A stretch of 40,488 nt of DNA, from IMG/VR virus record IMGVR_UViG_2700989521_000020. The stretch is one strand, 5' to 3'. This document shows, piece after piece, positions 15,001-18,000 of this stretch. Within the stretch, counting starts at the first letter, position 1, and each line of letters starts with the position of its first letter. Source of the stretch: a virus (lineage: Duplodnaviria > Heunggongvirae > Uroviricota > Caudoviricetes). A program made the position numbers.

Positions 15001-18000
15001 TAGATCACGGTTTGCTTGATGGAAGGTTGACAACTCATAAGAAATTAAATTTATTAATAAGACTCATTAAATTTTATGTTAGATTTGCAAGATGACAGGA
15101 AACAAAATATTAGGAGCAATAAAAAAAACAGGAGCAGCATTAATGTTTATTATTCTGCTGATCTTTGTAAAGATAATTGCAACTGAGTTCGGTGATAATA
15201 AAATTGATGATATTTTATCAAACAAAGAAGATGCAGATAAAATTGCCTCATACTTAAAAAATGAACTATCCAAGAAAAAATTCCCTATTAAAGTAGATGA
15301 TTATACTACATGGATTGCTGCAACCGTAGAAGGAAATACACTTAATCATTACTATAATATTTATGGGATTAATGAAGATATGTCGCCATTTTTTGATGGT
15401 GAAGAGATTAAAAACTTAATGAGCCTAGAAATACAAAAAAAATTAAATTCTGTCGAGTGTAAAATGATGCAGGAGTATAATTATACATTCAAATATCATT
15501 ATAACATAATAAACACGAAATATAATGACTTAGTTATAATTATGACAAAGAGTAATTGTCCACAATGAAGGGGATGCATATGGATAACTCAAAACTGAAG
15601 AAAATGCTTATTGCATCTATTATCGGAAACATACTTTTAGTTTTTTTAAATATTCAAGTGTTCAACCAAAAACACTCCTCAAACGTCATAGACACACAAA
15701 AAAAAGAGGATAAAAGTAAGTGGACTGATATAGAAAACATTTATCCTGTGTGTAAGGTTCACAATAATAACACATCTTATAGCGGGCAATTAAAGCCAGA
15801 ATGGTACTGTTATTGGTTTAATCCAATAACATACAAATACACATATTTAGAAAAGACTCTGATAACATCACCCAGTGATGGTGTTTTCTATTTTTCGAAC
15901 GAGTATACACCAACTATTGAATTACGTCATAAAGCAAGTGACATAAGTGTTCCTGTTGATATATATGCCAAACAATTATTAGACCGACTGGAACGTGAAT
16001 CAAATGCTAAAATTTTTCTACCTAAGGAGGCCAAACAGATAAAAAGTAAAAAGTTGGAAAAATGGACTTCATTTATTACAGTTATTCCCAAAGACAATTC
16101 AAAGGATATAGAGACTTTTCTTTTATCTTTCATTAAAAAGGAAGAGGTTTTATGGACGGTTTTCGTTGAATACCCAAATGATGATAAAAAGTACTGGTAC
16201 ATTGATGAGAAGACATTTGATCTAATAGATAAGATAACCAGTACTTTTTGATGCGACTATCTGGCGGGGATTAAATACTATATGCACCGTATTTATTATC
16301 CCCTTTTTCTGACGGGATACAGTACATAACGAACAATATAAAGCCACCAATATACGGGATGCACCAGATAAACAAGTACCAGGCACTTAACCCAATATCA
16401 TGGAGTCTGCGGACTTTCAATGTAATGGATGGAATAATCGTAGCTAATACGTAAACGCAAGGTATATAAAACCCATAACTAATGCCAGTATTATCTAATG
16501 TATATCCGATAAAAAAAAGAACTCCCAAGAATATTAAATTAAACAGATAATACCACCAGAACTCTCTTCGACTGGCTCGCCCTGAATAATTGAAGTAGTT
16601 ATTAAAAAGAACATCCGTATACCATGCCAAAGGGGATTTTCTCATGCTTTTATACTCCAAACATTAATATTAAATTGATGATTATTAACAACTTAAAACA
16701 ACGTTAATGTTTTACCTAATAGGGTGTCAACATCTACACAAGGAAATGTTGACACACCACACATTCTGTCGGATACTCTGCGTCAGGTGCTCAAAACACC
16801 TTAGCAAGTAGCGGTTACCGCGCCCGACAGACATGCGGTTTTTTTTGTGTCCAGTCTTCTTGGTTTATGACCGGGCGTGCGGCTAATACAATACCAGCAA
16901 TGGGAATATGCCCGCCGACTACTTGCGGTTTTGAGCGCCCGGTCACCCTCTCAAAAGGGGTAAATCAAAATATCAAGTAGGACACAAAGCATGAAAACCA
17001 TCTCCGTGGAGTCCCTCTCCATAATTTCATTTAGTAATATACCTGTGGTGACTACAGAGCTTCTTGCCAGCTTATATGGCACAGAACCAGATTACATCCG
17101 AAAAAATTTCAATCGGAATTCTGGACGATTTGTTATCGGTAAGCACTACTTTTTACTTGAGAATGAGGAGTTGCGCGAATTTAAGCACAGCATGTCTTTA
17201 AGACCTTCTGTGAAAATCGCCCGTAACGTTCGCTCCCTCATCCTCTGGACAGAACGCGGAGCAGCCCGTCACGCAAAAATGCTCGAAACTGATCAGGCAT
17301 GGGAAGTGTTCGAAAAACTGGAAGACTGCTATTTCAGCCAGGGAAAAACAACACAAACCGAACAGCAGTCGCATATTCAGCCACAATTCACAGCCGAGGA
17401 AATCATCCTCCTTTGCTACATGCAGCTCTGGATGGAAAAAGCCCAGGGCATCAGCAAACACCTGTACCCCATTATGAAAGAGCTGAACTCCTCATACACG
17501 AACAAGCTGTATGACATTGCGTTTGAGACTATCTACATGGTGACGAAGAACAGAGACGCGCTACTGAGGGAGGTAACACGTCTCGACATGTCAAGTTCCG
17601 TTGTCCAGAGGGCCATGCCAATGCTGAAAAGCCTGCGGGCAAGACAATTTGAATTCTGAAACCAAAGGAGCTTCGGCTCCTTTTTTGTTGGGAAAATCCA
17701 GTGAGAGGGAATAATGAACCAGACTATCTTCCTCCGAAGTAAGCAGCAGCAACAATTCGCCATTAACGCAATCCTTGCAACAACTCTCGATAAAGACAAA
17801 CCCGTTACGATCCGCATCACCGATTACAAGCGTAATCTCGCTCAAAATGCAAAATTTCACGCGATGGTCGCTGATATCTCCCGACAGGTTCAGTGGTGTG
17901 GCAGGTGGCTAAAACCAGAACAGTGGAAAGTTTTGTTGATCAGCGGTCATGCCGTGGCGACAAAACAGGAAGCCGATGTTTTACCTGGTCTTGAAGGCGA

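Follow-up and report, generated by a model that had tools for sequence, protein, structure and literature searches.

A three-gene envelope-protein moron in the accessory region of an Stx1 lambdoid phage, with a possible role in superinfection exclusion

The accessory region of a lambdoid Shiga toxin (Stx) phage, represented by IMG/VR record IMGVR_UViG_2700989521_000020 (40,488 nucleotides (nt), the whole of which is called the window here), carries an AT-rich cassette of three genes, A, B and a convergent DUF805 gene, for proteins predicted to lie in the inner membrane and periplasm. The cassette forms a discrete insertion that phages either carry or lack as a block; its genes probably form one functional unit, judging by their shared order in distant relatives, and it is a three-gene envelope moron that was previously undescribed. 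Our tentative first choice, held at less than even probability, is that it would act as an inner-membrane and periplasmic superinfection-exclusion system. The original prediction, made from this DNA without database searches, had described a three-gene membrane-protein cassette in the accessory slot of a lambdoid phage, and its open reading frames (ORFs), DUF805 match and hydrophobic segments were all upheld.

Window positions 14900-16800 were 100% identical to Shigella Stx1 phage POCJ13 and to phage 75/02 Stx, and the wider interval 11300-19200 was 100% identical to POCJ13 and 99.5% to 75/02 Stx (a window position is the POCJ13 record position minus 51). The cassette site is the accessory slot of the Stx1 lambdoid phage, from the replication genes (O, DnaC-like, DUF1627 and DUF977) to ninB, where the gene order is DUF4145 (-), small ORF (+), helix-turn-helix (HTH) antitoxin (-), Gp49/RelE-type toxin (-), A (+), B (+), DUF805 (-), ORF6N antirepressor (+) and NinB (+).

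The limits of the insertion were set by comparison with related loci. PhiR5_2 lacks the cassette but has its flanking genes, DUF4145, HigA and HigB to the left, Ant and NinB to the right; its homology to the window stops at 14981 and restarts at 17210 within the antirepressor gene, the restart being late owing to a different antirepressor 5′ region. A copy in other E. coli prophages, proximal to the integrase (L008), shares 14285-16859 and sets the right end, and a copy in a sequencing-run assembly (L005, 66-80% identical) has homology to the window from 14994. Because the PhiR5_2 match ends at 14981, the L008 match ends at 16859 and the L005 match begins at 14994, we place the cassette at about 14982-16859. 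It was present in only 4 of 429 matching phage records. It is thus extra DNA, absent at the same site in relatives and unlike the surrounding genes in composition, as is typical of a moron.

The AT-richness predicted relative to the flanks was borne out by windowed calculation: 15092-16660 had a GC content of 0.317, against a mean of 0.498 (standard deviation 0.045, z = -4.0) for 710 same-size windows clear of the cassette, and was the lowest of the whole window. The accompanying proposal of a recent horizontal acquisition did not survive. All versions of the cassette had GC 0.28-0.34 within flanks of 0.42-0.52, including those at 28-45% protein identity, among them Salmonella orthologous cassettes that are equally AT-rich (~0.32 in ~0.50 flanks). 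Because such diverged orthologues share the same GC, low GC is a long-kept property of the module and not a sign of recent arrival, and recent acquisition was ruled out as its cause. The low GC is in line with the general composition of morons, which differs from that of their phage (PMC3594210), and perhaps with regulation of AT-rich DNA.

The case for a single unit comes from distant loci with the same arrangement. In Salmonella enterica prophages (L014), an antitoxin and a RelE toxin (-), an A-like gene, a gene for a 230-amino-acid (aa) protein and a convergent DUF805 gene all lie upstream of Q, with identities to the window of 29% for A, 28% over the full length for the 230-aa protein against B (E 8e-19) and 45% for DUF805. 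An IMG/VR viral contig (L023) presents VapBC, an A-like gene, a B-like gene, a convergent DUF805 gene, Ant and NinB. The DUF805 subfamily of the cassette was never found without A or B; in IMG/VR it occurred at four loci, with B at all four and A at three, and no A- or B-like neighbour was present at 30 DUF805 loci from other taxa. Because order and convergent orientation are kept at 28-45% identity in two genera, we treat A, B and DUF805 as one unit. Scans of species-representative genomes and metagenomes revealed no further architecture.

Incomplete forms were also seen. B is precisely missing in L005 and L006, where homology runs to the A stop codon and then resumes 5 nt before the DUF805 stop; L027 is missing A and the toxin gene; and another Salmonella prophage (L016/L017), the only module locus from which DUF805 is absent, has an A-like gene alone beside HigBA, in truncated form. 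In a large protein collection, the exact B sequence was found on 523 contigs, the exact DUF805 sequence on 549 and one Salmonella B variant on 244; truncated B variants were on record there too. Reading frames remain intact in diverged copies, with indels in multiples of three (window compared with L008 and L005). The ratio of non-synonymous to synonymous substitution (dN/dS) was 0.38-0.45 for A (window compared with L008 and L005), 0.34 for B and ~0.5 for DUF805, the last from the one comparison divergent enough to inform, against 0.06 for the neighbouring toxin and 0.04 for the antitoxin. All three genes thus evolve quickly, yet under purifying selection, with dN/dS of 0.34-0.5 compared with 0.04-0.06 in their toxin-antitoxin neighbours.

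As predicted, one hydrophobic anchor lies at the N terminus of each of the two proteins (residues 6-36 in A, residues 5-29 in B), with I, K, N and Y abundant in A and K, I and S in B. From charge distribution and conserved Cys pairs, the bodies of both proteins are predicted to be periplasmic and tethered to the inner membrane. The spacer between the two genes is 11 nt, with a Shine-Dalgarno-like AGGGGA 5 nt before the B ATG, directly past the A stop, and A and B very likely form one translationally linked operon. A paralogous origin of A and B was rejected, profile-profile comparison giving it a probability of 1%. That neither protein belongs to a characterised family, as originally claimed, was supported by negative results with Pfam, NCBIfam and PADLOC, and the only matches were PHROGs 19308 and 21161, both of unknown function. 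The window A and B proteins had no Pfam hit even at E up to 10 and nothing significant among Protein Data Bank (PDB) sequences, and A, B and DUF805 matched no defence model in PADLOC-DB 2.0.0 at E up to 0.1, a catalogue of systems described up to 2023. Weak single-member hits to XAC2610_fam, PG1828 lipoprotein, T4_Spackle and phrog_23115 were not reproducible across family members and were set aside as noise or leads only.

For A, we prefer the 158-aa start at 15092 to that in GenBank (141 aa, 17 codons too late), since Met18, at which the shorter version would begin, is replaced by Ile in a 66%-identical homologue. A profile hidden Markov model (HMM) search of 1.84 billion representative proteins, an exhaustive type of search carried out for A only, returned a handful of remote relatives, which have in common the motif FP(I/V)x(V/I)D(E)xT and, except for one with a lipoprotein signal in its place, an anchor at the N terminus; hits P0013 and P0014 were rejected as repeat-driven false positives. 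A distant A-like protein of 140 aa (E 3.9e-6 to the A profile) is encoded at 5001-5423 of L018, a metagenome contig from the European Nucleotide Archive (ENA) with GC ~0.35, where its neighbours are very large proteins that have no Pfam hits and an AHH-nuclease toxin gene lies ~3 kb away. Such surroundings suggest a locus for polymorphic toxins, and with it the possibility that the A fold serves as an accessory or immunity protein outside prophages. Within A, loss of one base from a poly(A) tract (A8 to A7) cuts the protein to 117 aa in strain SW071611 (L004), and hits from its two clonal sister isolates, from wastewater, and from strain EC2 are likewise one base short; the tract may be no more than a mutational hotspot, or it may act as a slippage switch.

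B stands out by its allelic variation. Between the window and L008, A was 92%, DUF805 98% and B 56% identical. Local identity was ~0.85-1.00 in A, the B anchor, the B tail and DUF805, the B anchor and its last ~15 codons being ~90% identical, and fell in one internal block of B. Synonymous divergence (dS) between the same copies was 0.89 in B, 0.08 in A and 0.01 in DUF805; because it is high in B and low in the other two genes, we attribute the B domain to allele replacement by recombination. After a cysteine-framed loop of variable length, the motif C(Y/F)W(F/V)NP(I/A)T-x-KY is invariant in five alleles. This pattern suggests that the variable domain may be a recognition determinant under diversifying pressure. 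A word-indexed search for B recovered close relatives only and missed the Salmonella orthologues, which were found by synteny.

The convergent third gene had been called a DUF805 membrane protein, and it matched PF05656 at full length (106.1 bits against a cut-off of 25.7, E 1.7e-30, profile positions 1-111 of 111) with three hydrophobic segments. Its original end at 16660 holds for an alternative upstream TTG start, giving 129 aa; the ATG start, with GGAG 9 nt upstream, places the gene end at 16645. GenBank/RefSeq records of POCJ13 and 75/02 Stx leave the gene unannotated, and RefSeq E. coli genomes annotate it. By sequence comparison the protein is a full-length paralogue of host YhaH/YhaI (34% identity to K-12 YhaH and 37% to YhaI) and retains the motifs GRAxRxE and RRLHD, which would face the cytoplasm. 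Phages PhiWec188 and PhiWec190 (Stephanstirmvirinae) depend on host YhaH to infect, complementation restoring sensitivity, and an in-frame YhaH deletion, P66-A82, results in phage resistance (PMC12548472); the motif region removed in that resistant mutant is retained in the window DUF805. This requirement of some coliphages for host YhaH is the only phage-related datum on DUF805 so far, and the molecular function of the family is not known. A role as a holin was ruled out by non-prophage members in many bacterial phyla, the two K-12 copies and the predicted N-in topology.

Table 1 Positions of the cassette, its genes and associated features in the window
Feature	Position	Strand	Description
Whole cassette (moron)	14982-16859		~1.88 kb, GC 0.325; ends from PhiR5_2 and L008 homology
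Gene A	15092-15568	+	158 aa; N-terminal signal-anchor or signal peptide, ~125-aa predicted periplasmic domain, conserved Cys123/Cys156
Poly(A)8 tract in gene A	15428-15435	+	A8 to A7 loss frameshifts A in some strains
Gene B	15580-16251	+	223 aa from ATG; N-terminal transmembrane (TM) anchor, then predicted periplasmic domain
Allelic hypervariable domain of B	15665-16207	+	Identity to L008 falls to 0.42-0.75 in this block only
Cys58-Cys77 loop of B	15751-15810	+	18 to 35 residues across five alleles
DUF805 gene	16271-16645	-	124 aa from ATG; 3 TM, predicted N-in/C-out; convergent with B, 19 nt between stops
Conserved upstream region of A, putative A-B promoter	14994-15091	+	Perfect -35 TTGACA at 15028-15033
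Perfect 10-bp inverted repeat GTGTCAACAT-N12-ATGTTGACAC	16724-16755		TTGACA on each strand; conserved in L008 and L005
GC-rich stretch and T8 run, possible A-B terminator	16817-16852	+	Conserved in window, L008 and L005, partly in L014
HigBA-like toxin-antitoxin pair	14287-14926	-	Gp49/PF05973 toxin and HTH_3 antitoxin
Perfect 16-bp palindrome ATAACAAATTTGTTAT	14925-14940		At toxin start; outside cassette, in part shared with PhiR5_2

Candidate expression signals lie at both ends of the cassette (Table 1). The ~100 bp 5′ of A are conserved in L005, whose left neighbour is a restriction-modification pair and not a toxin-antitoxin pair; no good -10 was found for the TTGACA at 15028-15033. The inverted repeat upstream of DUF805, of which there is no second copy elsewhere in the window, is a candidate operator with putative back-to-back promoters, the leftward one for DUF805. 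A rightward promoter-like site lies within 16749-16852 (TTGACA-17-GATACT, 10/12 matches), followed ~70 nt on by a conserved T8 and then by an sRNA-Xcc1 element; no significant fold was found in this interval, which could give a short transcript or an attenuated antirepressor leader. As predictions, these signals would fit a classical moron with its own expression signals. The gap between B and DUF805 is 19-23 nt across loci and contains no terminator, so transcripts from A-B would continue antisense through DUF805. The literature searched yielded neither expression nor phenotype data for the cassette genes.

The left neighbour of the cassette is always of addiction or defence type, being a Gp49/HTH, RelE/HTH, VapBC, HigBA or type II restriction-modification pair. 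At cassette loci the toxin family varies between Gp49, RelE, HigB and VapC. Because the type of toxin-antitoxin or restriction-modification system at this position differs between orthologous loci, the slot behaves as a small defence/addiction hotspot. The toxin-antitoxin pair itself was rejected as part of the cassette system, since it occurs without the cassette in PhiR5_2 and the cassette occurs without it in L005; the palindrome ATAACAAATTTGTTAT at its toxin start is probably the antitoxin operator. The DUF4145 gene (13314-14060, -), which in several prophages accompanies the toxin-antitoxin pair whether or not the cassette is present, had a weak hit (E 0.0017) in PADLOC to PD-T7-4, a candidate defence gene. 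Just outside the right end, 16869-16952 (+) is a full-length Rfam sRNA-Xcc1 (RF02221; 79.6 bits against a gathering threshold of 53), 39 nt upstream of the ORF6N antirepressor gene. APSE phages likewise carry sRNA-Xcc1 upstream of an ORF6N gene (bioRxiv 10.1101/2020.03.17.996009), and the element may be a leader or regulator of the ORF6N antirepressor family; it was rejected as part of the cassette because it belongs with the antirepressor instead. Farther away, 22155-22368 (+), 3′ of the stx1 B-subunit gene, matched STnc100 (RF02076) in Rfam with 195 bits, and 37852-39873 (+) is a 673-aa ORF, presumably a tail fibre, with a long collagen-like Gly-X-Y repeat and a GC spike of 0.67-0.70 at 38.5-39.5 kb.

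An exclusion, envelope or defence role is made somewhat likelier by the conserved synteny, the hypervariable B domain and the paralogy of DUF805 to host YhaH. If the cassette excludes superinfecting phages, as we tentatively favour, the DUF805 protein would lie in the inner membrane of the lysogen as the core component, a diverged stand-in for, or poison of, a YhaH/YhaI-type host entry factor, and the C-terminal domains of A and B would face the periplasm, tethered there. The trio would jointly block passage of a superinfecting phage genome across periplasm and inner membrane, and the variable domain of B would set which phages are recognised. Antisense A-B transcription could make expression of the two halves, A-B and DUF805, mutually exclusive between lysogeny and lytic growth. 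The fully specified scheme, in which a phage-captured copy of a DUF805 entry factor would act with two periplasmic partners, one bearing a swappable, disulfide-framed specificity loop, we hold to be doubtful.

Several observations weigh against superinfection exclusion. Loci without A or without B exist, and so parts are dispensable or the cassette decays; it is rare, in 8 of 5426 complete E. coli genomes (all eight with three genes), and A is frameshifted in four of those eight, in two lineages. None of the three proteins falls into an exclusion family modelled in Pfam or PHROGs (T4 Imm, T4 Spackle, SieA/SieB and gp15/YebO among them) or matches a PADLOC model. A and B run in the same direction as early lytic transcription and may not be lysogen genes. 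The link to YhaH comes from one study, of unrelated myophages (PMC12548472), and the cassette DUF805 is only 34% identical to YhaH. Two structure models, built from 3-sequence alignments, had pLDDT 47 and 49 and were unusable. The terminator-like stretch at 16817-16852 folds no better than shuffles (z = -0.09), and promoter-like sites were not enriched over shuffles (8 found, 11.3 expected).

Other explanations fit parts of these data. To about the same degree doubtful as the fully specified scheme is an envelope factor of lysogenic conversion unrelated to phages, conferring, for example, tolerance of stress or protection against colicins, antimicrobial peptides or toxins (contact-dependent or secreted), with a gut benefit to the lysogen. 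An AT-rich moron with a predicted membrane or periplasmic location would suit this role, as would the one distant A-like protein in a polymorphic-toxin (AHH nuclease) locus and a sub-threshold match (E 0.047, scoring 14 bits where the cut-off is 35) of window A to an XAC2610-related domain family. XAC2610 itself confers immunity to a secreted peptidoglycan hydrolase. Morons also serve diverse functions (PMC3594210). However, none of the weak matches is significant and each involves a single family member, the genes close by are of phage-conflict and not of virulence type, and a swapped hypervariable domain suits an arms race, although bacterial toxins could be the opponent. We consider it unlikely that the cassette acts by abortive infection, with A and/or B sensing phage in the periplasm and triggering a DUF805-dependent collapse of membrane potential, so that the cell dies or arrests. 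The position in a prophage defence hotspot beside toxin-antitoxin and restriction-modification modules, the combination of a multi-pass membrane protein with sensor-like accessory proteins and the fast evolution would all be expected of such a system, but PADLOC gave no match, DUF805 is a widespread, housekeeping-type family without known toxicity and with two copies in E. coli, and loci with DUF805 and a single partner exist, so a pairing of toxin and neutraliser is not obligatory.

The observation that B can be absent (L005) or swapped and A absent (L027), together with A-like genes without DUF805 (L016, L018, L020) and the highly mosaic slot, could instead mean that three, or two plus one, independent morons lie adjacent in a recombination hotspot with no shared function. 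We think this quite unlikely, as order and convergent orientation are kept at 28-45% identity in another genus, the DUF805 subfamily was found only in the company of A or B, translation links A to B, GC is uniform across the block and the block behaves as a single insertion. It is improbable that the genes serve the lytic cycle of the phage itself, with A and B made from the early rightward transcript to exclude secondary phages (as do T4 Imm/Sp) or to modulate lysis, and DUF805 a separate lysogen gene silenced by antisense read-through. A and B are co-directional with early genes in every context, DUF805 is always antisense and only 19 nt and no terminator separate it from B, but closely related phages manage without the cassette and its own upstream region is conserved even where the left neighbour differs; this explanation overlaps with superinfection exclusion rather than excluding it. 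Decay to non-functional DNA would account for the frameshifted A of some strains, the truncated B variants on record and the rarity of the cassette, yet it is highly improbable, given that dN/dS is below 1 for each of the genes, that indel lengths are multiples of three, that reading frames stay open between copies only 28-66% identical and that the cassette is present on hundreds of contigs. Independent morons and decay are the explanations that the data oppose most directly.

Stx phages are vehicles for the spread of Shiga toxin in E. coli and Shigella, and genes that decide phage entry into lysogens shape that spread and also bear on phage therapy. The cassette is directly testable through its natural variants, in which A or B may be present or missing and B comes as two alleles, and a phenotype would assign a role to DUF805, a family found across bacteria. 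The fully specified scheme, if true, would add a new exclusion architecture and the first mechanistic handle on DUF805; if there were no phenotype, the cassette would be one more uncharacterised moron.

Among known proteins, host YhaH/YhaI are closest to the cassette DUF805, with the same family, length and three-segment layout and 34-37% identity; the cassette member differs in being AT-rich, convergent with two partner genes and of a subfamily seen only in lambdoid prophages. A likeness of B to VirB8-like/NTF2-like bitopic periplasmic proteins is a lead from a low-confidence model (pLDDT 49), with no sequence similarity. T4 Imm and Sp provide two-part envelope exclusion, by a membrane protein and a small periplasmic protein that inhibits the incoming tail lysozyme. 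Like Sp (Spackle), A and B have N-terminal targeting and a predicted periplasmic body, but Imm and Sp have no homology to the cassette and T4 is a lytic phage; Pfam T4_Spackle was hit by one of eight A-family members (E 0.037) and not by window A. P22 SieA and lambda/P22 SieB are prophage-expressed inner-membrane proteins of lambdoid/P22-like phages that block superinfection, as proposed for the cassette, but they are single proteins at other genome positions, with no sequence match to it. HK97 gp15, a small inner-membrane protein and the first moron described, offers a further parallel. Described as probably having diverged from a host protein of the YebO family, it inserts in the inner membrane, excludes phages and stops genome entry, leaving the outer-membrane receptor untouched (PMC3594210). 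It differs from the cassette in its unrelated sequence and in being a single small protein rather than three genes in convergent arrangement, and exclusion is shown for gp15 and inferred for the cassette. Nevertheless, the cassette DUF805 too is a diverged version of host proteins (YhaH/YhaI) in a lambdoid prophage, and gp15, with its resemblance to YebO proteins, is a clear precedent for an exclusion moron that resembles a host protein.

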